In this document: positions 4,094-55,458 of the stretch, piece after piece
Layout: the number at the start of each line of letters is the position of its first letter
Position numbering within the stretch: position 1 is the first letter of the stretch
DNA from: an uncultured Pseudomonadales bacterium
GTDB lineage: Bacteria > Patescibacteriota > Microgenomatia > UBA1400 > PJMF01
Length of the DNA stretch: 64,000 nt
Assembly: GCA_964648715.1 (NCBI GenBank)
Contig: CAZYNM010000006.1
Span: 15,355 to 79,354, forward strand
Direction: 5' to 3'
Translations under genes and position numbers: made by a program
Notes under the pieces: model-generated
The model's database searches: none
The model's input: only the letters and a program-made list of their open reading frames with translations
Told to the model about the DNA's origin: nothing

Positions 4094-6997
4094 CTATTCA
4101 TATCGCAATGCATCCAAAGCCGATATCTTGGTGGCTCTTTTGGCAGGATAAATACCCGTTAAAAGTCCAACAATAACAGATATAGCTAAAATAAGAATAA
4201 CAAAGGTATATGGTATGAAGGTAATATCTAAAAAGCCGTAGCCTTTTGACAACGCATACGTAGAAAGGATAAACGAGGTCGCTTTGCCAGCAGCATAGCC
4301 AACAAATAAGCCACCAACACCACCCATGAAGCCCATGGTCATAGATTCAGTAAGGTAAAGATTTTCTACTTCTTGTGCTTTCATACCAATAGCTTTCATC
4401 ATGCCTACCTCATGTGTACGCTCAAGAAGTGAAACAGTCAAGGTATTTAGCATACCAAGTGCTGCAACTGCAAGAGCAACAACGCCCAAGACACCGAGTA
4501 AAAAGCGGAGAGTCGCAAATAGATTCTCGATTTGTGAGACAGTATCTACTACTGAGGTTGTTTTAAACCCTTGTAACTCAATCTGTTTTCTTGTTTGTGG
4601 TAATACCGACTGATCATTTACAACAATTTTTGCTTGTGAATAGGTTGAGATCCCCATTTGTTTAATATCGCGAAGCGGGACATATAGAATAGGTGTCTTT
4701 GTATCGGGAGTGACCCCAACGATTGTATATTCAATCGGCACTGATTCAATTTTCTTACCATCAGCAAGTAAATCTCCAGTGGCAATAAATGATATTTTAA
4801 ACTTTTTACCAACTCCTGCACTCTCTGCAATACCAAGCACTCTAAGCAAGGATTTATTGACAACAGCTTCACGAGTGATTGTATCTGGTAACTCAATCTT
4901 ACGTGTTGAACCCGTTGCAGATACACTACTTGAACCGTCAATGCTAGTAATATCTATAAATCCGGAGTCAGAGGTCTTTTGGCTTGCAGCAGCAGTTGCG
5001 ACATCTTCAGCGGTTAGTTCATTAGATATGGTAGCCTGTGCAAGTGTAGTAGAAACACCGAGTACCGATCCAGACCCATAGACTTCAGCCAAATTTATTG
5101 TTCGATCAACTTTCATATTCAATTCAGCAAAATATCCCTCTTCAGTTATTTGTTTACCATTACTATCTTTCTTCTCTTTGTATACCATTTTTCCCGACTC
5201 ATCGGTGGTGCGCTCCCAGAGAAGCACTTTACTTTGTAGCCACAAACCAAGTTCTTTGTTATCCGAAGTTTTACCTGCTGAACCAGCTTTATCATCAGGA
5301 TACGAATCTCCCCAATACTCCACTGCATCACTGACCCCTTCAACTCTTCTGGTATATCCAAGAACTTCTCCATTAACGGATGGTTTTGTACGTATACGAA
5401 CATACTCTTCGGGGTCAATAGTGTAGGTGACTTTACCAATTTCATCACCAGCAACGGCTGTTTTAAACTCACGCTGTGTAGAAACTCCAGCTACCATACC
5501 CCGATGTGTTGTGTCTGCATCAGTGATAGGAATGCCCAACTCATTACTAGAAAATATTTTCCCTTCGGCAGGTCGAATTGCTGATTCCAATAAATAATCA
5601 GCCATAACCCCGTACACAGCGACATCACTATTTGAGTTTTGGAAACTTATTTTCCCGACCACACCAACAACAGGTAGCACCTTTGATACACCGGAAATGT
5701 TGCTAAATGAAGCAACTGCTTCATCATTGAGTCTGATATTTGTTGCAACAGCGGGTGAGGCATCTATTTGTCTCATCTCTTCAAGACGTGCAACTCGAGA
5801 AATTACCAATTTTTCAAGACCATAGCCAATCGAAATTAAAAACACTATGGCTGCAACACCGATTGTCATACCGCCTACGGTTATAATGGTACGTGTTTTT
5901 TTCGCAAACATGTTCTTGAGTGATAAATCGATTAAGTCAACTCGTGAGATCGTTTTCTTATCTCGTGTTTCTAGCACTCTAATTAATTTGAAATAAAAGC
6001 TATCAACCACAGGCAAAAATTTTCGCTTTACCACATTCGGTACAAATTTTAATTTAAGTACTCCATCGCTTAATTTCTTGCCTAAATAAACAATCAGTAA
6101 TGATAAGAATCGAACTATCTGCCCAATGTTACTTAGTAAAAATGGTAAAGTTTTGCGAAGTCTAAATATATTGAGGAAAGAGAATAACCAATGAACCCGT
6201 GAAGTACGTTTTTCTTTCTTTTGTAAGCGCGTACCTGCAATACTCATTTCTTGTTTTAAAACAATTCGTTCAAGGAGTAATTGTTTTAATTCTGAAGCCG
6301 ATTTTCCAGCTGTTTCAATATTGCGAACAATGCGTCCATTAAACATTTGGATAATGCTTTTGGCATAATCCACATTGTCAATGTTATGGGTTACCATGAT
6401 GATGGTAGTACCTTTTTCATTCAATTTTCTGAAAAGCTCCATGAGCTCGATACCGCTTTGATAATCTAGATTACCCGTCGGCTCATCAGCAATAATTACT
6501 TTAGGATCAGTGACTAGCGCACGTGCCAAGGCTACTTTTTGCTGCTGACCTGAAGAAAGTTCTGTCGGGAAGTAATCTGCCCAATCGCTTAATCCAACAA
6601 TATGCAGGCAGTCATGCGCTTTAAGTATCGCTTTTTGTTTCTCAACACCCAGTAGTGATAGGGCAAATGCAACATTTTCAACAACGGTGAGCGATTTAAT
6701 CCAGTTCGGTTGCTGGTAAATCATACCTATATTTTTTTTACGAAACTCAGACCTGTCGTCTTCGCTATACACATACAAATTCCAATCAAAAAAACGAGCA
6801 TTACCACTAGTTGGTGCTTCCAACCCTAATATGACATGAAGCATAGTTGACTTACCACAACCAGAGGGACCAAAAACGATTGCAAAATCGCCATCATTAA
6901 TCTCAAGATCAACACCATGCAACACTACAACATCCTGATTTTTAACCTCAAAGGCTTTAACAATTTTTTGCAGTGTAATAATAACTCTTGGTTTCAT
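4094..6997 (-). CDS. MacB-type ABC transporter with ATPase fused to FtsX-like permease and a large extracytoplasmic domain.
   Basis: Walker A GPSGCGKST, signature LSGGQQQKVALARAL, Walker B IIADEPTGNLD at the N-terminus. C-terminal four-TM FtsX-type permease. Confidence 0.85.
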   Translation of the reverse strand: MKPRVIITLQKIVKAFEVKNQDVVVLHGVDLEINDGDFAIVFGPSGCGKSTMLHVILGLEAPTSGNARFFDWNLYVYSEDDRSEFRKKNIGMIYQQPNWIKSLTVVENVAFALSLLGVEKQKAILKAHDCLHIVGLSDWADYFPTELSSGQQQKVALARALVTDPKVIIADEPTGNLDYQSGIELMELFRKLNEKGTTIIMVTHNIDNVDYAKSIIQMFNGRIVRNIETAGKSASELKQLLLERIVLKQEMSIAGTRLQKKEKRTSRVHWLFSFLNIFRLRKTLPFLLSNIGQIVRFLSLLIVYLGKKLSDGVLKLKFVPNVVKRKFLPVVDSFYFKLIRVLETRDKKTISRVDLIDLSLKNMFAKKTRTIITVGGMTIGVAAIVFLISIGYGLEKLVISRVARLEEMRQIDASPAVATNIRLNDEAVASFSNISGVSKVLPVVGVVGKISFQNSNSDVAVYGVMADYLLESAIRPAEGKIFSSNELGIPITDADTTHRGMVAGVSTQREFKTAVAGDEIGKVTYTIDPEEYVRIRTKPSVNGEVLGYTRRVEGVSDAVEYWGDSYPDDKAGSAGKTSDNKELGLWLQSKVLLWERTTDESGKMVYKEKKDSNGKQITEEGYFAELNMKVDRTINLAEVYGSGSVLGVSTTLAQATISNELTAEDVATAAASQKTSDSGFIDITSIDGSSSVSATGSTRKIELPDTITREAVVNKSLLRVLGIAESAGVGKKFKISFIATGDLLADGKKIESVPIEYTIVGVTPDTKTPILYVPLRDIKQMGISTYSQAKIVVNDQSVLPQTRKQIELQGFKTTSVVDTVSQIENLFATLRFLLGVLGVVALAVAALGMLNTLTVSLLERTHEVGMMKAIGMKAQEVENLYLTESMTMGFMGGVGGLFVGYAAGKATSFILSTYALSKGYGFLDITFIPYTFVILILAISVIVGLLTGIYPAKRATKISALDALRYE

Positions 6998-13846: not shown

Positions 13847-14188
13847 TTACATAGCCTTCATCCAAGCTGTAAGCATTCGGCCGATTTCATTTACCTTTTC
13901 CGCAGCAAATGTGTATTGCTTGATGCTCATCAGTTTTACATCCTTAGTCAACCGTATAAGAATTCGCAAGGTATCAAGATCACGAGAAACTTTTAGTTGT
14001 AATTGTCTTCTAATTTGTAGATCTCGCTCTGTGTTTGCATGAATAATACCGATTAAAACCTGTAATGCTGTGGAGTGGATATGATGACCTAAAATTGGTC
14101 GATGATTGCGTGGGAGTCTGTTTAAGAGATGATAAAGCCAGACCACTAAATCATATGTCTTTTGAAAAATAAGTAGTTTTTCCTCCAT
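13847..14188 (-). CDS. avd: Avd-like accessory variability determinant (four-helix-bundle, 23S rRNA-IVS-protein family).
   Basis: 113 aa, basic, helical, with sequence KTYDLVVWLYHLLNRLPRNHRPILGHHIHSTALQVLIGIIHAN resembling the Avd family. Sits immediately 5' of TR-RT in the canonical avd-TR-RT order. Confidence 0.65.
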   Translation of the reverse strand: MEEKLLIFQKTYDLVVWLYHLLNRLPRNHRPILGHHIHSTALQVLIGIIHANTERDLQIRRQLQLKVSRDLDTLRILIRLTKDVKLMSIKQYTFAAEKVNEIGRMLTAWMKAM

Positions 14189-14450
14189 GAAGTTAAAAAA
14201 TATAAATATTCATTAATGACATCCTTACAATTCTCTTACATATCTTACTTGCTTTTCAAGCTTGAATGTTACTGCAATTTTTAGGCGGATAAACCCGCCT
14301 CTAATGCAAGGGTCAAGATGAACTCTCTCGATTACATCGAGATCGCCCTTGCATTATTCACCACCCCTTTTTAAATTCCCAGGTATGGGAAGCAGGCGAG
14401 CTGCTTCCCAACCAAAAAATTATTAATTTACAGCAGCTTGTCAAAATACT

Positions 14451-15233
14451 ATGAAGTTATCAGACAACGCACGAGCAAGTCTTGATCGAGTGATTGAAAG
14501 GTTCAAAAGCGGAGACCTTTCACCCATTACAAATATAGCTAGATTTGAGATCCCTGAGGATGCGCCATGTTTTAAATGGTCATTTTCAAATAAAGTACTG
14601 GCATATATCCAATCTGGTGAGCTTGATTGTAGAGGTTTTAATCAGTGGCAAGATGCAGGCCGAAAGGTCAAGAAAGGTAGTAAAGCCGTCTTTATCTTAA
14701 GACCGCGCACAATGAAGTTTGAAAAAGAAGGAGAAGAGCCACAAGTCATCTGTGTGGGTTTTGCACCAATACCAGTATTTGCAGCATCAGGTACAGAAGG
14801 TGAAGGCACTCTGGCAGTGTACCAGCCTAGAGAACTGCCCCCACTGTATGACGTTGCCCAGAGGTTAGGGGTAGAAGTGCGATATATGCCAGTATCCCCC
14901 GATAAGCTAGGAAGCTGTAAGCCAGACGGCACGCGTATTACTATCGGTACAGAAGCCCCAGAAGTGTTTTTTCATGAGCTAGCGCACGCCATACACGCCA
15001 AAATTGAAGGCACGTTAAAATCTGGTCAAGATACTACACAAGAAACCATAGCCGAGTTTACATCTTCCGTGCTAATGGATTTATACGGACTCAAGGACAC
15101 CAGCGGCAACACTTGGCAATATATCAAGATGTACGCAAGTGACCCACTTGAGGCAATAACCAAAGCAATGGCAACAGTCGAAAAAGTATTACAAGTTTTA
15201 CTTGCCCAAGAGAATACAGAGGCTACAGTATAA
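14451..15233 (+). CDS. ardC: ArdC-like antirestriction / zincin protein: N-terminal ssDNA-binding ArdC-N domain plus HExxH metallopeptidase domain.
   Basis: FNQWQDAGRKVKKGSKAVFIL matches the ArdC-N core motif. HELAHAIH is the zinc-binding HExxH motif. Typical conjugative-element gene. Confidence 0.65.
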   Translation: MKLSDNARASLDRVIERFKSGDLSPITNIARFEIPEDAPCFKWSFSNKVLAYIQSGELDCRGFNQWQDAGRKVKKGSKAVFILRPRTMKFEKEGEEPQVICVGFAPIPVFAASGTEGEGTLAVYQPRELPPLYDVAQRLGVEVRYMPVSPDKLGSCKPDGTRITIGTEAPEVFFHELAHAIHAKIEGTLKSGQDTTQETIAEFTSSVLMDLYGLKDTSGNTWQYIKMYASDPLEAITKAMATVEKVLQVLLAQENTEATV

Positions 15234-19113: not shown

Positions 19114-21702
19114 TTATCTTTCAACTTCAAAAATATTTTTAACCTTATCTTTTAAATGGATATTATCTCCTGAAATTGCTTGATCATTGTTTTTAAGAGC
19201 ATTTCCATATCTCTGACGTGAACAAGTAATTGTTGCATTTATGACATCAGCTGCTGGTTGTAGTTTAAAATTCTCAATCTCTCCACTAAACGTAGCCTGT
19301 GGCTGTAATGCATTGATCTTCATATAAAAATTATACGAAGGGATATTTGCCATCTGTCCTTTTTCTACTTCTGGAGCAAATACAGGCAGTAGCTTGGCTT
19401 CATCCTTTGGACTGGTGGTTCTAAAACAGATCAAAGTACCAGTATTACCGATGATTGTCTCAAGTAAGTCATTCTCTATCTGCACTGTATTTTGATGAGC
19501 CAATATCACACTCAATCTATACTTACGTGCTTCAGAAAGAATCTGTGCAAACGACATAGTAGCAAAGTTCTGAAACTCATCTATATATAAGTAAAAGTCA
19601 GCTCGCTTTTCTTCAAGTATATGTACTCTACGTAAAGCAGTAAGCTGAATTTTGGCAGTTAGAAGCCCTCCTAGGAAGTACGCTGTGTCTTCTCCTATCT
19701 TTCCTTTTGAGAGATTACAGATCAAGATTTTCTTTTCATTCATGATTGTTTCAAAATCAAGTTTGCTCTCAGTTTGATTGAGAATATTTCTAGTCATGCC
19801 TGTAGTAAGAAACCTGCCCAATTTATTGGTAATAGGTGATATCTGCTCTGCACGTTGAAATGAACCTTGCTTATCAAATTCATTCTTCCAGAAAGACTTC
19901 AAGATGTCGTCTTTTAGTAAGCTGGTTACTTTTTTGCGATAGTTGGTATTAGTCAGCAAGTCATAAATAGTAAATAGGGTGGGTTTTTCTTGCTCTAATG
20001 CCGTTAAGATCACGTTTCTCAAAATATGCTCCATTCTTGGTCCTGAATATCTTGGATCATAGAGTTTATGGAAAATTGAGATAAGCGTTGAAGTAATAAA
20101 ATCTTTCTCTCGCTGAAGTTCAACATCAGATAACCCTTTAGGAATCTCTAGTACGTTTAAGCCGATTGGGAACTCAATATCATACGGATTAAAGTAAACT
20201 ACATCTTTGACTCTCTCCTCTGGAATAACACCTAGTAAACGCTCTGCTAAATCGCCATGTGGATCAATAACAGCTAGTCCATTACCTTTTTGCATGTCTT
20301 GATGGATCATGTGCATGAGCAAGGTTGTTTTTCCCGTACCAGTTGCCCCAATGATATAGGCGTGTCTTCTTCGCTCCTCAAGGGTTAAGCCAATCTGTGT
20401 AGTAGTTTCTCCATAGGTATTGGTGGCAAAGGTAATATCTAGCTCAAGGTCATTTTTCTTGAGAGTAATAGGTGCAGGGAGCTTAGGACTTTTTACTTGT
20501 AGTAAGTCCTCTGTTTTAGTTGTTGCTGTATAAGGAAAATGGTACAAGGCAGAAAGCTCATCTACCGACAAGACCATATTATTAGTAAAAAATGGGAACC
20601 GAGTTTTAAATTGTGAGTAGTACAAGTTGTTCAGTGTTTTAGATCTAATAATCTTGGCTAAAGATCGTTTTATCTCAATACCTTGATGTGGTGTGTTAAA
20701 AGTATCGAATGAGGCAGTAATACCTTTGAGGCGTTCAACTGCTTTTTCTTGAGAATGTGTCTGGATATGAATTCTTGCTGTGGTTTCAAATAATGGCTGA
20801 GTGATCTTATTGGCTATACTATTATATAGTTCTGTTTTTGTTGCACCTAGGCCATTAGAAGTATACTTTGCCGTTGATCTGAATAACCAAACAGGAAAGG
20901 CTTCTTGAGTATTACTAACTAGCCATGAAATGACTGTCACAGGTGTTAAAGCAATGAATGCAACGGAACTTGCGAGTAAGTTCACTAGGTATCTACCACT
21001 GTGCGGTTCTATCAGGTCAGTAATGTCTTCATTATTGAGAAATTTTTTAGTGATCGCAGTAATAAAGCTGAGTGTCCCGGAGTGCGTGCTTTCATGAATT
21101 GATGAGCAAACGAACTGAAGGCTGATTACTTCATCAGCTTGTAGCTTGGTCATGTGGGCGGTGAGATATGCCAGTGGGTCATATTGATTTAAGGTTTCTT
21201 GTGAAGCAATCGGATATATAAACAACTTCTTTAACTGTAACTCTCGGATCAAGGAGTATAACTTGGGATTACTTTGTACATGGTCACTAACTTCTTTGAT
21301 CTCAATACCCGGTAAATATGCTAGTAAGGTCTTTCTAATGCTGGGGGTTTCTTCTAGTCCAACACGTAAGATAAATCGAATACCATCATTTTTATTTGAA
21401 ACCAGTTCATAACTAATACTCTTTGTTAAGCCAAGAAGTTTATCTCGCCAATGATGAGGCTTTTCAAGTGAGTGCAAGATCGTAAATAGTTGTGCTGTAG
21501 ATAGTGGTGATTTGAGTGTTCGAGCAGTTGGCTTGATTTCAAGGAATAAATACTTTCTGCTCAAGTATTTTTTAATACAGATGAGTTTGAGGGTGATCTT
21601 AGAGAGTAAATACCCCACCGCAATAGATAGCAAAATATAAATTGTTATTTCAGAGAATAAATAGGGCGGGAATATATTAGATATATCCACAGTATTTAGC
21701 AT
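19114..21702 (-). CDS. T4SS ATPase of the VirD4/TraG coupling-protein type (VirB4/VirD4 superfamily) with N-terminal membrane anchor.
   Basis: Two N-terminal TM helices. Walker A GATGTGKTT followed by VIDPHGDL (close to the coupling-protein DPKGE motif). Walker B YLYIDEFQNF. VILAHQNTVQ motif. Confidence 0.6.
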   Translation of the reverse strand: MLNTVDISNIFPPYLFSEITIYILLSIAVGYLLSKITLKLICIKKYLSRKYLFLEIKPTARTLKSPLSTAQLFTILHSLEKPHHWRDKLLGLTKSISYELVSNKNDGIRFILRVGLEETPSIRKTLLAYLPGIEIKEVSDHVQSNPKLYSLIRELQLKKLFIYPIASQETLNQYDPLAYLTAHMTKLQADEVISLQFVCSSIHESTHSGTLSFITAITKKFLNNEDITDLIEPHSGRYLVNLLASSVAFIALTPVTVISWLVSNTQEAFPVWLFRSTAKYTSNGLGATKTELYNSIANKITQPLFETTARIHIQTHSQEKAVERLKGITASFDTFNTPHQGIEIKRSLAKIIRSKTLNNLYYSQFKTRFPFFTNNMVLSVDELSALYHFPYTATTKTEDLLQVKSPKLPAPITLKKNDLELDITFATNTYGETTTQIGLTLEERRRHAYIIGATGTGKTTLLMHMIHQDMQKGNGLAVIDPHGDLAERLLGVIPEERVKDVVYFNPYDIEFPIGLNVLEIPKGLSDVELQREKDFITSTLISIFHKLYDPRYSGPRMEHILRNVILTALEQEKPTLFTIYDLLTNTNYRKKVTSLLKDDILKSFWKNEFDKQGSFQRAEQISPITNKLGRFLTTGMTRNILNQTESKLDFETIMNEKKILICNLSKGKIGEDTAYFLGGLLTAKIQLTALRRVHILEEKRADFYLYIDEFQNFATMSFAQILSEARKYRLSVILAHQNTVQIENDLLETIIGNTGTLICFRTTSPKDEAKLLPVFAPEVEKGQMANIPSYNFYMKINALQPQATFSGEIENFKLQPAADVINATITCSRQRYGNALKNNDQAISGDNIHLKDKVKNIFEVER

Positions 21703-22167: not shown

Positions 22168-23739
22168 ATGAGTACAAATAATAATGAATCAGTAAAAACA
22201 GCGGTTATATATTTAAGAGTTTCTACTGAAGAACAGGTGGATAATTTTTCATTGGATACTCAAGAAGATATTTGTCAAAAGGAAGCTATTAAGCGCGGGA
22301 TTGAAGTTATCAAAGTTTTCAGAGAGGAAGGTAGATCAGCCAAAACAATCACAGGTCGTCCAGTATTGATTGAGATGCTAGAGTACTGTAGAAAAAACAA
22401 GAAAAAGATTGATGCAGTCATAGCGTATCGAGTAGATCGTATCTCACGCCAGACACAAGATTATTTAGCTATCCGAAGAAAGCTTACAGAGTGCGGTATA
22501 ACTTTGATATCTGCTACTGAACCCACTGGTAATAGCCCTACAGAAAAACTTGTTGAAACGATTCTGGCAGGTTTTGCACAACTAGATAATGATGTCAGAA
22601 GTGAACGCACAAAGAATGGAATGAGAGCAAGATTCCTGGCTGGTCTTCCAAATGGAAAAGTGCCTCTTGGATATCTAACTATAGATGGCTGTGCAGTCAA
22701 AGACCCAGAAAAATGGGATCTTGTAAAAAAAGCATGGGATTTAATGGAGACAGGTACGAAAACACTGAATGAAATTGCAGTACTTATGAATGATTGGGGT
22801 TTAAGGAATGTAATTGGAGGCAAAGAATGTATTTTCAGAGCTCAGACTGCAAGTAGACTATTTAAAAATAAGTTTTACGCAGGTGTGTTGACTTCACCAC
22901 GTTACCCCGATGAGGCTAAAGGTCAACACTTACAAATGATCTCAGAGGCTCAATACTATAAGGTGCAAGCCGTTATTGCTGGTAGAAATAACAGTATTAA
23001 TATTCCTGTTGTTAGAAGGAATAGAAACAACTCTGATTTTCCATTAAGAAGAATTATTAAGTGTGGTGGTTGTGGTGCACCATTTACAGGTGCATGGAGT
23101 AAGGGCAAGCGTGCAAAGCATGCTTATTATTTCTGTAGAAGTAGGTGTGGTAAACCATCTGTCAGAGCGTATGATGTTGATTTTTCAGTGGTTGAATTAC
23201 TCAGGAGAGTAACACCCAAGCAAGAAACACTAAATGCATTTATTGCCTTACTAAGAGCCAACTATTATAAAAGAGTTGCCAGTCTACAAAAGAAAAAAGA
23301 ACATGCTGATGTTGAACTAAAGAGACTACAATCCCTTAGAAAAGGATTAGTCGAGAAAAATCTATTAGGTATATATAGTGATGAAATATTTAAAGAACAA
23401 AATAAGATAATTGAAGAGCAAATCATAACCCTTGAGATAACAAAGGACGATGCTTTGCTTTCCAAATACAATCTCGAAGCAATAATTGCTTTTATGAAGG
23501 ATAAATTTGCTGATTTAGGAAAAACGTATCAAGAATCAGATATTGAGCAGATAAAAGTATTGTTGTGTTCGATATTTGACTCAGAACTCACTTGGGACTA
23601 TTCTGGCATTTCGAACACCCAAATTAATGCGGTATATCAATACATTTATGACTTTGAAAGTGTTGATATCGCAAATGGTGACCCCATGGAGAATCGAACT
23701 CCAATTACAGGGATGAAAACCCTGCGTCCTAACCGTTAG
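22168..23739 (+). CDS. Large serine recombinase (integrase).
   Basis: N-terminal resolvase domain with catalytic Ser in AVIYLRVSTEEQ and the YRVDRISR motif. Recombinase domain. Zinc-ribbon cysteines CGGCG...CRSRCG. Coiled-coil C-terminus. 3' end overlaps tRNA-Glu. Confidence 0.85.
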   Translation: MSTNNNESVKTAVIYLRVSTEEQVDNFSLDTQEDICQKEAIKRGIEVIKVFREEGRSAKTITGRPVLIEMLEYCRKNKKKIDAVIAYRVDRISRQTQDYLAIRRKLTECGITLISATEPTGNSPTEKLVETILAGFAQLDNDVRSERTKNGMRARFLAGLPNGKVPLGYLTIDGCAVKDPEKWDLVKKAWDLMETGTKTLNEIAVLMNDWGLRNVIGGKECIFRAQTASRLFKNKFYAGVLTSPRYPDEAKGQHLQMISEAQYYKVQAVIAGRNNSINIPVVRRNRNNSDFPLRRIIKCGGCGAPFTGAWSKGKRAKHAYYFCRSRCGKPSVRAYDVDFSVVELLRRVTPKQETLNAFIALLRANYYKRVASLQKKKEHADVELKRLQSLRKGLVEKNLLGIYSDEIFKEQNKIIEEQIITLEITKDDALLSKYNLEAIIAFMKDKFADLGKTYQESDIEQIKVLLCSIFDSELTWDYSGISNTQINAVYQYIYDFESVDIANGDPMENRTPITGMKTLRPNR

Positions 23740-23750
23740 ACGATGGGGCC
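23676..23750 (-). tRNA. tRNA-Glu (anticodon UUC), with encoded CCA.
   Basis: Hand-folded cloverleaf: acceptor GGCCCCA/TGGGGTC, anticodon stem CAGGG/CCCTG with loop TTTTCAT, T-loop TTCGATT, discriminator A, then CCA. Confidence 0.8.
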
Positions 23751-48022: not shown

Positions 48023-48406
48023 TTACTTGAGCCACTGCTGCAGTTCCCAGATGTGCCCATCTGGATCGGTAAAGTATGCAGTTCGTTGTCCCCAAGGTTG
48101 GGTGGTGGGAGCTGCAATGAAAGGGACGCCTTTTGCCAGAAGTGCAGTGTAGTCTGCATCAATATCTCTGCTATCGGAAAATGAATAAACCGCTCCCCCA
48201 CTCTGTTTCAGAACCCCAGGAGGGAATAGTTTCTCAAGGTGAGAACGTCCATAAATTGCAAGGAAACAATTGACAAGACCAAACTGACAGAACTCTTCTG
48301 AAGCTACTTCACGCACAATAGGAAATCCTAAAGTGTCCGCGTAAAAACTACGCGCGTTTGAATAGTCGTCGGTGGTAAGAATAATCCAACGTACTGCATG
48401 ATCCAT
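48023..48406 (-). CDS. VOC-family (glyoxalase/bleomycin-resistance fold) protein.
   Basis: FYADTLGFPIV... fold pattern. 127 aa. Confidence 0.65.
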   Translation of the reverse strand: MDHAVRWIILTTDDYSNARSFYADTLGFPIVREVASEEFCQFGLVNCFLAIYGRSHLEKLFPPGVLKQSGGAVYSFSDSRDIDADYTALLAKGVPFIAAPTTQPWGQRTAYFTDPDGHIWELQQWLK

Positions 48407-48478
48407 AGTACTACTTTACCAAGTATTCTCCAATATAGTAGCACACGTACATACTTACGTAATCATCTAGGGAAGAAT

Positions 48479-48838
48479 TTAAGGATACCTCTGGAGCTTA
48501 TATACAAAGAAATATCCTGGGAGCACCGCTTGCACGTCAAAAGGTGCTTCACCAGTGACATTGATTCTTGAAGCTTGTTGTACAGCTTGTGTCTTTACTT
48601 CAGCTGCGTTCTTCCCAGGGTTAATGGCGTCAGCAACGGCCTGGAGCTCTGTGTTGTTTAGTGAAGAAATTTTAGCGAGGAAATCTGTTTTGTCTCCCAG
48701 CAGCTGTGCCAATTCCTCTGCAGTAATACTGAGGGCACCCCCTTGCTCATTCAAGGGTAACGTTGGCATGCGAGGAATGTCTAGCACAGGTGCTTTTATT
48801 TCTTGTGAATGTTCAATTTGAGATGCAGCTTCATTCAT
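48479..48838 (-). CDS. Hypothetical protein.
   Basis: ORF only. Confidence 0.35.
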   Translation of the reverse strand: MNEAASQIEHSQEIKAPVLDIPRMPTLPLNEQGGALSITAEELAQLLGDKTDFLAKISSLNNTELQAVADAINPGKNAAEVKTQAVQQASRINVTGEAPFDVQAVLPGYFFVYKLQRYP

Positions 48839-49233
48839 ATAAAGTCCTTTATATTTTTCACTGTAGCAGACGTGGTGCTCTAAGTAAAACAGGAAATTGT
48901 GTCTAGAAATAACAGAACTATGTAAATTTGCAGTATTTTTCTTACTACCATACTCTACGCTGTCACCGACAGGTTTCTGTTGAGTAAAGTGGGATGAGTG
49001 ATCTGGGTGTGATTAAAGAAAACCAAGGTGAGTACGATGTTATTCATTTTGTGTATGCACAAGAGGATGTGACGGGTGTTCCAAAGCTTTGTGAGCCTGA
49101 GAAGTGTGAGCGTTGGGAGTGGCTGAGTCCTGGTGAGATTGATGAGCGAATGGTACGCGGGCACTTGCTTGCTCTTGAGATGCATCACGAAGGGAAAAGT
49201 TGTATTGATTGGGTGGGTGTTGAAAAATGATCG

Positions 49234-51153
49234 TTATTCCACCATCTGCATTGACCAAAACTTGTCATAGAGATTGCCTGGTTCTGCAATCAGGTTAGCG
49301 TGTGTCCCCTGCTGGACAATTTTGCCGGCATCGATCACGTATATATAGTCTGCTTTGCGAGCAACACTCATCCGGTGAGTAATAAAAAGTATGCCTGCAT
49401 TCTCTTTGTACTTTTGGAGCTGCTTGAGAACTAAGAACTCTTTTTCTGCATCCAACTGACTACTGCCTTCGTCAAAAATAAGGAACGGTCGGCGCTGAAT
49501 AAGTGAACGTGCCAAGGCGAGCAACTGCCGTTGACCTCCAGAAAACGAGGTATCTTCATCTACTACTGTTTCCAGTTTTTTAGGAAGCTCTGCAATCAGT
49601 TTCTCCAATTCCAGATCGTGCAGTACTTCTTTCATTCTTTGTTCGGCATCTTTGATATGTTCTGAACCCATCAGTAAGTTTGCTGCAAGTGATTGGCGTT
49701 CCATGATGAATGGTTGTTGCGTGAGCCAGCTAAAGAGTTGAATAACTTGATCTGGCTTATATTCATATATTGGTGTGCCATCAAGCAGCACTGAGCCAGC
49801 TGTAGGCTCGTAGTGATGCTGAAGCAAGTGAGTGATTGTAGTCTTTCCGGAACCGTTTCTACCCACGAGCGCCACAATTTTTCCTTTTTCTAAGGAAAGA
49901 GATACATCTTTGAGGACTTCTTGTGGCTTGGAAGTATCTTGAAGTACTGCTTGGATCTCGGCCATTTCGCGGCTGCGATTGCCATTATTTTCTTGAATGA
50001 ATTTCTTAATTCGATTGGTTAAGAACTCTAAATATGCACGTTCATCTTCAGTGTGACTTGGGTATGAAAAGTAAACGTTTTGTAACGTAACTGCAGAAAT
50101 TGAATCTGGAAGTGCCACGGGATTTTCAACTGATTTAATACGTGACTGCATTGAAAAGTAAAACCCCAATTTAGTAAATGAAAAATCTATATCTTCCCAA
50201 TCTGAGATAGAGCTAATAATGCTAGTAAAGAAGTTATTGATCTGCTGAGTATAGGAAACTACCAGCATGAAAGTACCAATACTTATCTGTCCTTGCATGA
50301 CTTGATAGCCAATGAAGATGTTGGTAATCAGTAGCAAGCTGTTATCAAGCACCCATCTGATCCCAATCAGCTGCGTTCGTGCAGCATCACGCTCCAGTGA
50401 TGCTGTGTCAGATTCATCTTTAATTTTTTCATACTTATCAATCAGTAAGTCAACATTTCCCATCATTCTAATTTCATAGAACTGTTCCATTAATAAATCT
50501 TGAATCCTGTATAACTTGTCATTTATTCTTGACTCAGTAATACTGTACTCTTCACTTTGTGATCTGAGGTACTTTGAAATAATCATCTGGCCGATTGCCA
50601 CAACTAAAATTAATACTAAAAGCTTCCAGCTGACTAATGCCAGAAGTGGAAGAATTGCCAAGAAATTTACTACATTTGAAAAGCGTTCAGTTACAAATCG
50701 AAATGCTGCAACTACCGTGTCGGAAGCATACAAAGCATCGGAAAACATTTTCTTGTTCCGTTTACTTTGAAAGAATCCTGCATCAAGCACAGTAAGTTTC
50801 CCCCAAATTAGCTTTTGGGTTGTTATGCTTATTTTTGTACGAAGTTGTGTCAAGAATTTATACTCAAAAAGAGAGAGTGCATGGCTTGTAATGAACTGTA
50901 GTCCCAATGGGATTATCAGCAAAATGATAAAAAGCACCAGAGGATTGGCGTGCACAAAATAAAGAACGGATTGCTGTTTTTCAAGTTGGTCTACCTGCAG
51001 TTTAAGAAAAAACGGAATAACCGCAGCAAGCATCGCTCCGATGGTGCTGACGACAAAGTAGCCCACTAAGTACGATTTGTGTTGCTGAAGAATGGAAAGA
51101 ATGAAGCGGAGCTTGTCTCTGAACGTTTTCAACGATACGTTGCTTGAGTTCAT
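49234..51153 (-). CDS. ABC exporter with fused permease and ATPase.
   Basis: Six-TM ABC_membrane domain. Walker A LVGRNGSGKTT, signature FSGGQRQLLALARSL, Walker B LIFDEGSS. Confidence 0.85.
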   Translation of the reverse strand: MNSSNVSLKTFRDKLRFILSILQQHKSYLVGYFVVSTIGAMLAAVIPFFLKLQVDQLEKQQSVLYFVHANPLVLFIILLIIPLGLQFITSHALSLFEYKFLTQLRTKISITTQKLIWGKLTVLDAGFFQSKRNKKMFSDALYASDTVVAAFRFVTERFSNVVNFLAILPLLALVSWKLLVLILVVAIGQMIISKYLRSQSEEYSITESRINDKLYRIQDLLMEQFYEIRMMGNVDLLIDKYEKIKDESDTASLERDAARTQLIGIRWVLDNSLLLITNIFIGYQVMQGQISIGTFMLVVSYTQQINNFFTSIISSISDWEDIDFSFTKLGFYFSMQSRIKSVENPVALPDSISAVTLQNVYFSYPSHTEDERAYLEFLTNRIKKFIQENNGNRSREMAEIQAVLQDTSKPQEVLKDVSLSLEKGKIVALVGRNGSGKTTITHLLQHHYEPTAGSVLLDGTPIYEYKPDQVIQLFSWLTQQPFIMERQSLAANLLMGSEHIKDAEQRMKEVLHDLELEKLIAELPKKLETVVDEDTSFSGGQRQLLALARSLIQRRPFLIFDEGSSQLDAEKEFLVLKQLQKYKENAGILFITHRMSVARKADYIYVIDAGKIVQQGTHANLIAEPGNLYDKFWSMQMVE

Positions 51154-51341
51154 AGCTTGTATTATACATCAGCGTTAAAAAACTCTCTCAAGAGAGCAAT
51201 GGCAGAGTCTGAATAGTCTGTGATGAGTGTGGTGAGTTCTTGTGCGCTGATGCCGTAGTCACCAAACCACTTGCGGTCTAGGGCGACGGCAGTGGGGATG
51301 ATGTGCGTGGTAAGTGGAGTCGGGTGGGGCATGAAACTAGA

Positions 51342-52595
51342 TTAAACTTTGTTTAAAATACCTTCCATTTTCTTCAATCCACTTAAGATAAAATGAAAGC
51401 GATTAGCAAAATAAAGATTTAAATAGTATTCAGCAATTTTTACAGGATACAAAGTACTTACTTTTTCAGAACTATATTTGCCTGTTATTACACTGATTCT
51501 TTCTTGACCATGTACGATCCTGTTCCTAAATCGATACAAGTCTTCGATGATTTTCTCAATACTATTTGCTTGCAAACTATCTTTTGCAATTTGATTAGAA
51601 ATTAGCACAGCCTTATTCTCTTTGGTGTCTGTCTCTCCTTTTAAGGGTGACAGTGCGTCAAAAGCAGTGGTCAAAAATACAGCCTTTGTATGAATTTGCT
51701 CGGATTTACTTGCTTCATAAAGCCAGTAGCTCGCACTCAAAATGCTTGCTTGTTGTTCTTGAGCTCGAGCTAATGTTTTTTTACTACGAGTTAGTTTTTT
51801 AAGTAGAATCATTATGCCATTATTTATTTCTTCTAAGTAGCTGATATTTTGTTTAGTTAAATTAAACTTAAGCTTATTAAGCAATATGTTGTCCTCCTGT
51901 GATTTATTAAATTGTTTAATTTCATCAGTATCTTGAAAAGCAAAACAATTAAATATCTGATTTGAAAAATGTGATGGGTCACTAGTTATAATAAGAATCT
52001 TCATTGCTAAATAAATACCAAGCACGCATTTATAAATATATAGAGGATCAGTAATATTTAAATTAATTACATCACCAAATTCTCCAATATAACCACTCCC
52101 AGATATTTTTAAAATAATGTCACCAGGCTTAAATATGTTTGTATGTTTTCTTTTAATTAGGGTGGTTAGATACTCATCTCTTGAGTTATCTGGAAAGTAT
52201 TTGTTTATCCATGCTTCATCTATAGTAAATATTTCTATATTCCAAGCTAGTTTGGCAGTAAGTTTAATAGGGGATTCAGGCAATAAAAAAAGAAAATCAT
52301 AGCTGAGTGGCAGAGTATTTAAAAACTTATCAATTTCATTTGTGATTTCTTCAAGATTGAGTTTAGTTACTTCAGCCATTTTCCTACTACCAGAATACAA
52401 ATGAGACGGCAGACCTAATATACACTTAAAACATTTTCCCGTTATATAAGAAAAAATAGTTTTCTCATCAACTCCATTTTTGTATTTAGATGCTAGTTCT
52501 TGAACTAACTTATCATCTAAACTATTCATTTCAGGAATTCCATTTGTAAAGACAAAATTTGATATAAGGTTTTTAATAATGCTAGTGTTAGACAT
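51342..52595 (-). CDS. Orphan 417-aa protein in a very AT-rich island. C-terminal HEPN-like motif (LYRFRNRIVHGQE, Rx4HG). Candidate defence/abortive-infection-type gene.
   Basis: Local GC near 30%, against ~50% flanks. Rx4H motif followed by G near the C-terminus. No other recognisable domain. Confidence 0.45.
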   Translation of the reverse strand: MSNTSIIKNLISNFVFTNGIPEMNSLDDKLVQELASKYKNGVDEKTIFSYITGKCFKCILGLPSHLYSGSRKMAEVTKLNLEEITNEIDKFLNTLPLSYDFLFLLPESPIKLTAKLAWNIEIFTIDEAWINKYFPDNSRDEYLTTLIKRKHTNIFKPGDIILKISGSGYIGEFGDVINLNITDPLYIYKCVLGIYLAMKILIITSDPSHFSNQIFNCFAFQDTDEIKQFNKSQEDNILLNKLKFNLTKQNISYLEEINNGIMILLKKLTRSKKTLARAQEQQASILSASYWLYEASKSEQIHTKAVFLTTAFDALSPLKGETDTKENKAVLISNQIAKDSLQANSIEKIIEDLYRFRNRIVHGQERISVITGKYSSEKVSTLYPVKIAEYYLNLYFANRFHFILSGLKKMEGILNKV

Positions 52596-52614
52596 ACATA
52601 AAATTATTTTGAAA

Positions 52615-55458
52615 TCAACTTAATTTTAACTCACTCCCTTGCTCCAACTTACTATTCGTCTTCTGCTCCACCCACTGCTGCCACTCAGCACTCGGCATGG
52701 TTGGCACACTCACAGTGGCCGTGTCACTCAGTGACATGCCCGCTGCTTTGCGTAGGTTTTGAATGCTGCGGACGAGTTCGCGCGCCGTGCCTTCTTCCTT
52801 CAGCTCAGGGGTCAAGTTGGTGTCCAGCGTGACAGTAGTTTCACTGCCCTTTTCCCAGACCACTGCTTTGACGTTGACTTCAGAAAGCAAGACTTCCAGT
52901 ACCGCATCACTTGGTTTTTCATACTGTGACTTCACCGTTACAGTGGCCAGTGGCTGGCGGACTTTGACACCACTCTCTTGTCGTTGTGCCAGGGTTTTCT
53001 CCACTACTTCACGTACCACGGTCATACTCTCTTCTAGTTTTGCATCAGTATTTTTTGCCAAGTCTGCTGGCCAGTCAGTATGATGAATACTCGTACTTTC
53101 ATCCACTAACGTCTGCCAGACAAAATCACTAAAGAACGGTGTGAACGGTGCAGCCAATTGTGCCAAACGCACCAGCACCACGCCATAGAGATGCAGTGAG
53201 TCAGCTTTGCCTGCTCCATCGCGCATCTGGTCTCGTGAGCGGCGGACGTACCAGTTGGACAGATCAGAGATAAAGCCCATGATGGCACGAGAAGCCCGCA
53301 CCACATCATAGTTATCCATGGCGGTGGTGACTTCACCAGTCAGTGTGCCCAAACGGCTCCAGATCCAGCGATCCATCTCAGTGGCAGGTGTGGGCTCACG
53401 ATTCAGGTCAACTGCCAGTTCACCAGCATTGAGTTTGTAGAACGAAATACAGTTCCACCAGATCACAAAGATTTTTTTCCTGATTTCATTGACTTCTGTT
53501 TCAGAAAAGTTGAGGTTTTCGCCACGCATCACTGGTGAGCTCATCAAGTACAAGCGCAAACTATCGCTGCCGATTTCGTTGATGATCTTCATCGGATCAG
53601 GATAGTTTTTCTTGGACTTAGACATTTTATTGCCATCTTCCGCGAGCACTGTTCCAGTCGTGAGCGTGTTTTCTACCGCCAGCTTGCCAAAGACACCCAC
53701 AGACATGACGTGCATGGTGTAGAACCAAGCGCGGGTCTGGGCGATGTACTCAGAGACAAACTGTGCAGGATAGGTGGACTCAAACAACTCTTTGTTTTCA
53801 AATGGATAGTGCTTGGAGGCAAATGGCATTGAGCCAGACTCCACCCAACAGTCAAAGACTTCTTTGGTGCGGCGGCCTTTGATGGTGCGCTCGTCGTCTA
53901 CCCAGACTTCGATATGATCCAAGAATTCACGGTGAATGTCGGTCAGGCCTTCTACTTGGGATGGATCAACTGCCCATTTTTTGAACTCTTCAATACTGCC
54001 AACGATGCGGCGTTTCTTGGCAGGTTTGCCTTTTTCGTCCACTGCCTCGGCTTCCCAGATTGGCATTGGCGTGCCCCAGTAGCGTGAGCGGGAGATGTTC
54101 CAGTCTGGAGCGGTTTCCAGCCCTTTGCCAAAACGGCCATGTTTGAGATGTTCTGGGTACCAGTTCATGAACTCATTTTGGGCGATTAATTGTGACTTTA
54201 GTTTTTGCACATCGATAAACCAAGCTGGCAGCGGTGCATAGTACAAGCGGGTACTACAGCGGTAACACTCAGCCACACTGTGGGTGTGCGGATCTTCTCG
54301 GTACATCAGTCCGCGCTCTGCTAAATCTGTATTGATCAGTGGATTGGCTTTGAGGATAAACATGCCAGCCCAAGGCGTCACTTCTGCTTTCAGCTTGCCT
54401 TCTTCATCCACATGTTCCACCATCTGGATGTTCTGCTCTTGCATGACTTTAAAGTCTTCTTCGCCGTAAACAGCCAGAGTGACAACGCCAGTGCCTTCTT
54501 CTGCAGTGACGAATGGATCGGCCACGATCACGCCTGCGCGCTTGCCTTCACGATCTGGGTAAAAGTCGTAGTGTAGTTCAAACTCAAACTGCTCCAGCTC
54601 ACTGCCTTGGTAGGTAGCCACAACTTCGTATGGCGCGTCGGTGAGCATCTTTAAAGCAGTTTCAGCCAAGATATAAAACTCATTATTTTGTTTGACTTTG
54701 ACGTAGGTCAGTTCTGGATTTACAGCGAGAGCTGGGGTGGCTAGTTTGTTCCAAGGTGTGGTGGACCAAGCTAGGATGAAGGTGGGCTCGTTGGCGGGCG
54801 CATTCTTGATTTTATATTTATAGGTATTGGAAGGTTCTGTCACTTCGCGGTAACTGTTGTCCATCGCAATCTCAAAGTTGGAAAGCGGTGTGGCACAGCG
54901 TGGACAGTACAAAATCACTTTGCGGCCTTCATAGACCAAACCTTTTTCCCAGAGTTGTTGGAAACCCCACCAGACACTTTCCATGAAGGTAGTGTCCATG
55001 GTTTTGTAGTTGTGTTCAAAGTCTGCCCAACGACCAAGGCGGCCGATGATCTTTTCCCACTCTTTGTCCAAGCGCAGTACTTCTGCACGGCAAGCGGCGT
55101 TGAACGTATCGATGCCCAGGGCTTCAATACCTTTTTTGCCTCCTTTTATATCAAGTTGTTTCTCGATCATGTTTTCGATTGGTAAACCGTGACAGTCCCA
55201 TCCCCAAATTCTTTCAACGCGGTAGCCTTTCATCGTCCAGTACCGTGGAATGACATCTTTACTAGTAGAACCCAGCAAGTGGCCATAGTGTGGCATACCT
55301 GTCGCAAAGGGAGGCCCATCGTAGAACACATACTGTTTGTCGGCAGGGCGCATCTCCACTGATTTTTCAAAAGCTTTGGTGTCTATCCAGAACTGCAAGA
55401 CTTCCTCTTCCACTGCGGGGAGGTTGACTGATTTTGGTAATGCTTTAACTTTGTTCAT
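52615..55458 (-). CDS. ileS: Isoleucine-tRNA ligase, type 2 (archaeal/eukaryote-like).
   Basis: FYDGPPFATGMPHYGHLL (HIGH region of type-2 IleRS) and a KMSKS motif. CP1 editing and anticodon-binding regions. 947 aa. Confidence 0.8.
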   Translation of the reverse strand: MNKVKALPKSVNLPAVEEEVLQFWIDTKAFEKSVEMRPADKQYVFYDGPPFATGMPHYGHLLGSTSKDVIPRYWTMKGYRVERIWGWDCHGLPIENMIEKQLDIKGGKKGIEALGIDTFNAACRAEVLRLDKEWEKIIGRLGRWADFEHNYKTMDTTFMESVWWGFQQLWEKGLVYEGRKVILYCPRCATPLSNFEIAMDNSYREVTEPSNTYKYKIKNAPANEPTFILAWSTTPWNKLATPALAVNPELTYVKVKQNNEFYILAETALKMLTDAPYEVVATYQGSELEQFEFELHYDFYPDREGKRAGVIVADPFVTAEEGTGVVTLAVYGEEDFKVMQEQNIQMVEHVDEEGKLKAEVTPWAGMFILKANPLINTDLAERGLMYREDPHTHSVAECYRCSTRLYYAPLPAWFIDVQKLKSQLIAQNEFMNWYPEHLKHGRFGKGLETAPDWNISRSRYWGTPMPIWEAEAVDEKGKPAKKRRIVGSIEEFKKWAVDPSQVEGLTDIHREFLDHIEVWVDDERTIKGRRTKEVFDCWVESGSMPFASKHYPFENKELFESTYPAQFVSEYIAQTRAWFYTMHVMSVGVFGKLAVENTLTTGTVLAEDGNKMSKSKKNYPDPMKIINEIGSDSLRLYLMSSPVMRGENLNFSETEVNEIRKKIFVIWWNCISFYKLNAGELAVDLNREPTPATEMDRWIWSRLGTLTGEVTTAMDNYDVVRASRAIMGFISDLSNWYVRRSRDQMRDGAGKADSLHLYGVVLVRLAQLAAPFTPFFSDFVWQTLVDESTSIHHTDWPADLAKNTDAKLEESMTVVREVVEKTLAQRQESGVKVRQPLATVTVKSQYEKPSDAVLEVLLSEVNVKAVVWEKGSETTVTLDTNLTPELKEEGTARELVRSIQNLRKAAGMSLSDTATVSVPTMPSAEWQQWVEQKTNSKLEQGSELKLS

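Follow-up and report, generated by a model that had tools for sequence, protein, structure and literature searches.

What a solitary, AT-rich gene lying directly behind ileS encodes, and how it came to be there, is the question raised by ORF417 (51342..52595, minus strand), an open reading frame (ORF) with an ATG start in the 64,000-nucleotide stretch of contig CAZYNM010000006.1 analysed here (the window). HEPN RNases are metal-independent enzymes, usually dimers that bring two Rx4-6H motifs together, and are among the commonest effectors of bacterial immunity. The first-pass annotation, made from the DNA letters, had placed the 417-aa product of ORF417 (identical to database protein P0001) near these enzymes by a C-terminal motif and proposed a horizontally acquired defence gene. 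According to our analysis, with somewhat better than even confidence, ORF417 encodes a horizontally acquired, solitary two-domain HEPN effector of abortive infection, in which the N-terminal domain would sense an infection cue and license the RNase. Active RNase chemistry is probably on firmer ground than this model taken as a whole, and the role in defence appears less certain.

Conserved motif and homologous proteins

The peptide LYRFRNRIVHGQE, read from the sequence as residues 353-365 of the ORF417 protein, contains the Rx4HG motif that had first drawn attention to the gene (codons at 51507..51527, minus strand). A bare Rx4-6H motif arises in 36% of shuffles of this protein and is not significant, while the fuller form R[NDH]xxxHG arises in 0.055%; the significance of the motif lies in its conservation and in the fold that carries it.

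An exhaustive HMMER scan of 1.84 billion representatives (E<=0.001) returned 67 proteins, namely the ORF417 protein itself and 66 others (cluster representatives), one of which, a repetitive protein of 2972 aa, is probably spurious. The earlier label "orphan" is appropriate for a gene that stands alone, and not for a protein without relatives. Family matches at E<=1e-10 number 49, the best having 33-35% identity and E=1e-49; overall, homologues are 22-35% identical, and most are 400-450 aa long and align over their full length. Across 54 aligned family sequences, G168, W291, R357, and H362 are invariant, and P96, Y99, P106, P184, E294, D313, N358, and G363 are conserved in at least 90% (D313 in 90%, N358 in 94%, and G363 in 98%). 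The arginine and histidine of the motif are conserved in 100% of these sequences, so the first-pass proposal withstands its own check on whether homologues keep the two residues. The family signature reads N-x-x-[YF]-W-[YF]-[YF]-E, then T-[AS]-x-D-[SA], then L-Y-x-x-R-N-x-[IV]-[IV]-H-G.

The family is rare. Its clusters hold one or two sequences labelled "hypothetical protein", and the sole organism label found for a member is Candidatus Saccharibacteria. A word-indexed search of 5.8 billion proteins recovered the identical sequence only, from an 80-kb NCBI contig, and the same search with the alignment as query added just one further family member. No homologue of ORF417 was detected in phage genomes (tblastn) or viral contigs, and searches of PDB sequences with single protein and profile queries gave nothing meaningful. 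The ORF417 protein has no significant match in Pfam, NCBIfam, PADLOC, or PHROGs (for PADLOC-DB v2, 0 families at E<=1); NCBIfam likewise gave no match to the family consensus or to other members. The family consists of HEPN effectors outside every one of these curated libraries.

Predicted fold and domain architecture

The AlphaFold model of the ORF417 protein is of high confidence, with a predicted local distance difference test score (pLDDT) of 91.6 and a predicted template modelling score (pTM) of 0.91; a single-sequence model (pLDDT 37) was unusable. Two domains are predicted. The C-terminal HEPN domain (residues ~248-416; 51348..51854, minus strand) forms a four-helix up-down bundle structurally similar to solved HEPN domains, including the HepT toxins 7ae2 and 5yep, and the first-pass expectation of a HEPN fold is borne out in this model. 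Its predicted helices comprise helix-1 (272-297, carrying W291 and E294), helix-2 (301-315, carrying D313), an insert helix (325-336), helix-3 (340-361), and helix-4 (376-416). Helix-3 ends at the R357...H362 motif, as described for HEPN domains (PMC3710099). A polar residue directly follows the arginine (N358), and both the helix-2 acid D313 and the insert between helices 2 and 3 are present, as in other members of the superfamily.

The N-terminal alpha/beta domain (residues ~1-245; 51861..52595, minus strand) is specific to the family and has no known relative; Foldseek with the whole ORF417 model found no match in PDB or BFVD at E<=0.001. Its conserved positions (P96, Y99, P106, G168, D183, P184) are of the structural type, and they appear to be structural (P, G, Y) rather than catalytic. 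We propose that this domain is a sensor or regulatory module.

Relationship to known HEPN families

The sole curated model with any signal is PF18735 (HEPN_RiboL-PSP), which was matched by 14/54 members at E<=0.01 (best E=2e-4), while the ORF417 protein itself gave no match to it. The consensus C-domain scored 17.5 bits (E=0.004, profile positions 58-171), and because this lies below the gathering cutoff of 28.4 bits, the family is best described as a distant relative of PF18735 rather than a member. The Rx4-6H motif is conserved in both; the L-PSP endoRNase fusion of PF18735 is not found in the ORF417 family, however, and the N-terminal domain is unrelated. According to Anantharaman et al. 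(2013), RiboL-PSP-HEPN is grouped with Abi2/Swt1, and AbiF and AbiD are "distantly related" (PMC3710099).

A weak tblastn match on a Martelella plasmid led to a proteobacterial family of ~430-470 aa (e.g., WP_155122297.1 on the Martelella plasmid pMM259), named "HEPN domain-containing protein" at NCBI, with some members called "Apea-like HEPN" at JGI. This sister family is similar in overall size, also has its HEPN domain at the C-terminus, and is also uncovered by Pfam. Compared with hhalign, the two families match with a probability of 96.5% (E=8.8e-10) across 91 columns that take in helices 1-3, pairing W291/W314, D313/E336 (E336 is invariant in the sister family), R357/R381, and H362/H386 (ORF417/sister). 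In contrast, the N-terminal halves do not align, the motif reads R-S-x3-H instead of R-N-x3-H, and the hosts are Proteobacteria and plasmids, whereas the ORF417 family comes from contigs resembling the candidate phyla radiation (CPR). These alignments suggest a picture in which one HEPN core has been joined to differing N-terminal modules.

Among functionally characterised proteins, a parallel in organisation is HepS, an abortive-infection anticodon nuclease of the Gifsy-1 prophage, which is likewise a single HEPN protein without a partner gene on a mobile element. In HepS, a phage tail-tip protein opens an otherwise inactive tetramer, which goes on to cut tRNAs in their anticodon loops; this provides the template for a mechanism in which a trigger repositions Rx4-6H motifs (PMC13043305). 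Other known systems differ from ORF417. HepT from HEPN/MNT modules (toxin ~130 aa) is only about a third as large as the ORF417 protein, and no nucleotidyltransferase (MNT) appears in any context listing of the family, the neighbours of ORF417 itself being ileS, a gene remnant, and an ABC exporter gene. Unlike Csm6/Csx1, ORF417 has no detected CARF domain, and the window holds no CRISPR array. The lactococcal AbiV, AbiD, and AbiF are of the type III toxin-antitoxin (TA) kind, and a noncoding RNA (ncRNA) antitoxin is not supported for ORF417; neither Pfam nor PADLOC gave an Abi_2 or AbiV match for it (for Abi_2 in Pfam, none at E up to 1), and AbiV lacks the canonical arginine (PMC3710099).

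Horizontal acquisition behind ileS

The GC content of ORF417 is 29.7%, the lowest among all 1254-bp stretches of the window (0.08th percentile; mean 42.5%, standard deviation 4.4%), and its GC at third codon positions is 22.7% vs 54.7% in ileS. The sharp contrast noted by the first-pass annotation is real, although the "~50% core" set against it fits only ileS (49.4%); the ABC exporter gene has 40.2%, and positions 1-24000 of the window are also low (33-40%). On the minus strand, the gene order is ileS (52615-55458; stop TGA at 52617-52615), a spacer of 19 nt (52596..52614), ORF417, 9 nt, orf56 (51162..51332, 56 codons, 51.5% GC), 8 nt, and the ABC exporter gene (49234-51153, with ABC_tran and ABC_membrane matches), so the gene does lie between an ABC exporter and ileS. 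The interval 51154-52614 had been said to encode a single 417-aa protein, which holds for ORF417 but overlooks orf56. Once the GC-rich stretch 51162-51332, which is left over from an unrelated 182-aa gene, is set aside, the low-GC islet spans 51342-52614.

ORF417 was absent from all 70 ileS loci examined. The four closest genomes in a species-level collection have ileS identities of 96% (L010), 92% (L027), 90% (L007), and 89% (L008) to the window, and three of them (L007, L008, and L010) have sequence past ileS for comparison. DNA likeness between the genomes ends within the last codons of ileS, and the 19-nt spacer forms the left junction of the islet. What follows is different in each relative. 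L010 has a 242-aa gene (L010:12843-13571, 33.5% GC); L007 has a 216-aa gene (L007:7117-7767, 35.9% GC) and, right behind it, a homologue of the glyoxalase-family gene that the window has at 48023-48406; and L008 has genes of 283 and 312 aa (L008:12913-13764 and 13850-14788, 31-33% GC), a GC-rich 182-aa gene (L008:14788-15336), further genes, and then the glyoxalase gene. The cargo genes of the three relatives are unrelated to ORF417 and have no Pfam or PADLOC match; they are candidates for further accessory or defence genes. Judging from these comparisons, the segment between the conserved anchors ileS and the glyoxalase-family gene (48407..52614 in the window) is variable and a cargo hotspot, with ORF417 as one of several alternative cargos inserted directly after ileS.

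As the composition of the islet is deviant and no close relative examined has ORF417 at this conserved site, horizontal acquisition, as first proposed, is supported. The right junction is marked by orf56, which corresponds to residues 1-49 of the L008 182-aa protein (65% identity, tblastn); because the remainder of that gene is missing from the window, orf56 is a truncated pseudogene remnant at a rearrangement breakpoint. Searches for flanking repeats, att sites, and target duplications at the islet gave chance-level 12-13-nt matches only. The islet has no mobility genes of its own, and the nearest recombinase is 28 kb from ORF417.

L007 and L008 lack the ABC exporter gene in the corresponding interval, and the 5' half of this gene has only 36-37% GC. 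It may be a second acquired gene, whose insertion perhaps truncated the 182-aa gene.

Farther away, the first ~24 kb of the window has 33-40% GC vs 43-55% for the rest. At its boundary, a 523-aa large serine recombinase (22168-23739, plus strand) abuts a tRNA gene (23679-23750, minus strand); its homologues include the recombinases next to other family members (E=1e-53 for the neighbour of P0002). Also encoded in this region are an 862-aa protein (19114-21702, minus strand), part of which resembles the coupling proteins TrwB/VirD4 (E=1.6e-8), an ABC protein similar to MacB, and a protein of 1530 aa without PDB relative; a further feature lies at 4094-6997 (minus strand). Positions 1-24000 are probably a large integrative, possibly conjugative, element.

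With respect to the host, ileS in records titled Patescibacteria, Woesebacteria, and Pacebacteria is 58-66% identical to that of the window. The host lineage is probably Patescibacteria; this label is not certain because the four closest genomes carry mutually inconsistent titles. Genomes with ileS 56-96% identical (L007-L046) are titled Methylococcaceae, Limisphaerales, Patescibacteria, Woesebacteria, Pacebacteria, and, in dozens of cases, "uncultured Pseudomonadales". One "Pseudomonadales" isolate is named HK-STAS-PATE-16, and many public labels of these metagenome-assembled genomes look wrong.

Genomic contexts of family members

About 17 distinct contexts of family members were examined besides the window, and the metagenome scan for contexts used 18 closer sequences. 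No recurring neighbour gene is shared between these contexts, and the family gene therefore appears to function alone. A ParB gene, the operon partner looked for in the comparison with PF18735, was not seen beside any family member in them. Genes of ~298/299 aa downstream of the family gene in L077 and L078 were considered as partner candidates and rejected, being unrelated.

Mobile-element genes recur in the neighbourhoods. A large serine recombinase lies within a few kb in five contexts (L002, L077, L079/L080, L087/L088, and L091/L092), and these recombinases are mutually homologous. Five contexts (L077, L079, L083, L087, and L091) have an XRE-type helix-turn-helix (HTH) gene close to the family member, and a TerS-like gene was found in L083 and, weakly, in L077. 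One case is a compact integrated element adjoining a ribosomal-protein operon (L091:4972-11173, and L092). Besides the family gene, it encodes a SocA_Panacea-domain protein, an XRE HTH protein, a 273-aa protein, and a large serine recombinase, and the stop of the XRE HTH gene overlaps the start of the family gene.

Restriction genes recur as well. The gene for P0005 follows the C-terminus of a type I HsdR (EcoEI_R_C, E=9e-16) after 47 nt, and P0036 lies a few kb downstream of genes for both a type I HsdR and the type IV restriction enzyme GmrSD (L089:1-4862, a probable defence island), with several unannotated genes between. Other family members are singletons among housekeeping genes, and where GC was measured, members are usually lower than their neighbours. 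The first-pass reading of a horizontally acquired candidate defence gene with a HEPN fold and a conserved R/H pair is supported; the defence function itself is an inference.

Expression signals

The gap between ileS and ORF417 is too short for a conventional promoter plus leader. An AATAAT box resembling a -10 element lies at 52603-52608 (minus strand), 7 nt before the ATG, which the promoter consensus scan did not call, and no Shine-Dalgarno-like sequence is present in the 19-nt spacer. TATAAT-like boxes were also found 6-12 nt before the start codons of several homologues (L002, L003, L085, and L006/L086), which may point to leaderless transcripts with a promoter travelling along with the gene. 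Terminator-like sites in the region do not exceed the shuffled expectation in number; a hairpin with a T-run inside orf56 (51182..51197, minus strand), found by consensus scan only, is a possible end of a putative ileS/ORF417 transcript.

Proposed mechanism and alternative explanations

In the proposed mechanism, R357, N358, and H362 of the HEPN domain, with the helix-2 D313 and possibly E294, would form a metal-independent endoribonuclease site, and the role of the family-specific N-terminal domain would be that of sensor or autoinhibitor. If ORF417 behaves like the HEPN defence proteins that have been characterised, its resting state may be an inactive homo-oligomer. A phage-derived cue acting through the N-terminal domain would then shift two HEPN domains into an arrangement that brings their Rx4H motifs opposite one another, after which the enzyme would cut an essential RNA (tRNA, rRNA, or mRNA), and translation would stop and the infection be aborted.

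The same fold and motif occur in the HepT toxins, and the family gene often resides on integrative elements, so ORF417 could instead belong to an addiction module that keeps mobile elements stable, or be a selfish toxin that plays no part in defence, with the N-terminal domain as a fused cis-acting antitoxin or with an antitoxin that has gone unrecognised. The SocA_Panacea antitoxin-domain gene on one element and the overlap of one member with an XRE HTH gene are consistent with such a module, and its distinction from abortive infection is partly semantic. We consider it unlikely, however, as no adjacent small gene is conserved across contexts, no MNT partner was seen, and ORF417 in the window is not on a recognisable element. 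A related possibility is that an adjacent small ncRNA blocks the HEPN site, as in the type III TA systems. The only Pfam relative, PF18735, is placed near AbiD/AbiF (PMC3710099), and AbiF/AbiD and AbiV are held in check by ncRNA antitoxins (PMC13064643). Yet in the window the gap before ORF417 measures only 19 nt and the one after it 9 nt, the gap before the gene varies between -4 and 256 nt across the family with no upstream DNA in common, and neither tandem repeats nor an Rfam or Abi_2 match were found, which makes an adjacent antitoxin RNA very improbable; a novel RNA that overlaps coding sequence may nevertheless exist. Because an ncRNA antitoxin is disfavoured and no protein antitoxin candidate is conserved, the autoinhibited two-domain model is the most economical.

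HEPN domains also function in RNA processing and as inactive scaffolds (PMC3710099; AbiA in PMC13064643). ORF417 could accordingly serve the host, or the elements that carry it, in RNA processing or regulation, or as a module for binding or dimerisation that has no catalytic activity; some members do sit among housekeeping genes, and ORF417, packed right behind ileS, may be co-transcribed with it. An invariant and complete catalytic constellation, the patchy distribution of a rare family, the foreign composition of the gene, and its absence from close relatives all argue against a core function, and we regard this explanation as distinctly unlikely. Finally, just the absence of an annotation or family model would speak for a chance long ORF in AT-rich DNA with no real gene. 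AT-rich DNA is stop-rich, and that reading is refuted by the 66 homologues (22-35% identity), which share their length and a set of invariant residues, and by the confident AlphaFold model; its probability is practically nil.

The abortive-infection effector remains the explanation we favour. A more ambitious version of it, which we regard as possible if rather doubtful, would make the family a new single-protein abortive-infection system, mainly of Patescibacteria (CPR), carried on serine-recombinase integrative elements, in which a novel type of N-terminal sensor, lacking relatives in both sequence and fold, gates the HEPN RNase, and would make the site behind ileS a hotspot of further defence genes (the 216-, 242-, 283-, and 312-aa genes).

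Biological significance

One more HEPN RNase is in itself unsurprising, and ORF417 most likely encodes a stand-alone anti-phage suicide RNase that is familiar in kind and new as a family. What sets it apart is a HEPN domain paired with an unmatched N-terminal domain, in CPR-like genomes, a group in which phage defence has been little explored. Were the activity and trigger to be demonstrated, the family would add a new sensor domain to the defence repertoire and would provide a marker for finding defence hotspots in CPR genomes, such as the ileS-glyoxalase interval. Should the more ambitious version hold, these proteins would be among the first effectors dedicated to phage defence to be defined in this lineage of ultra-small episymbionts.
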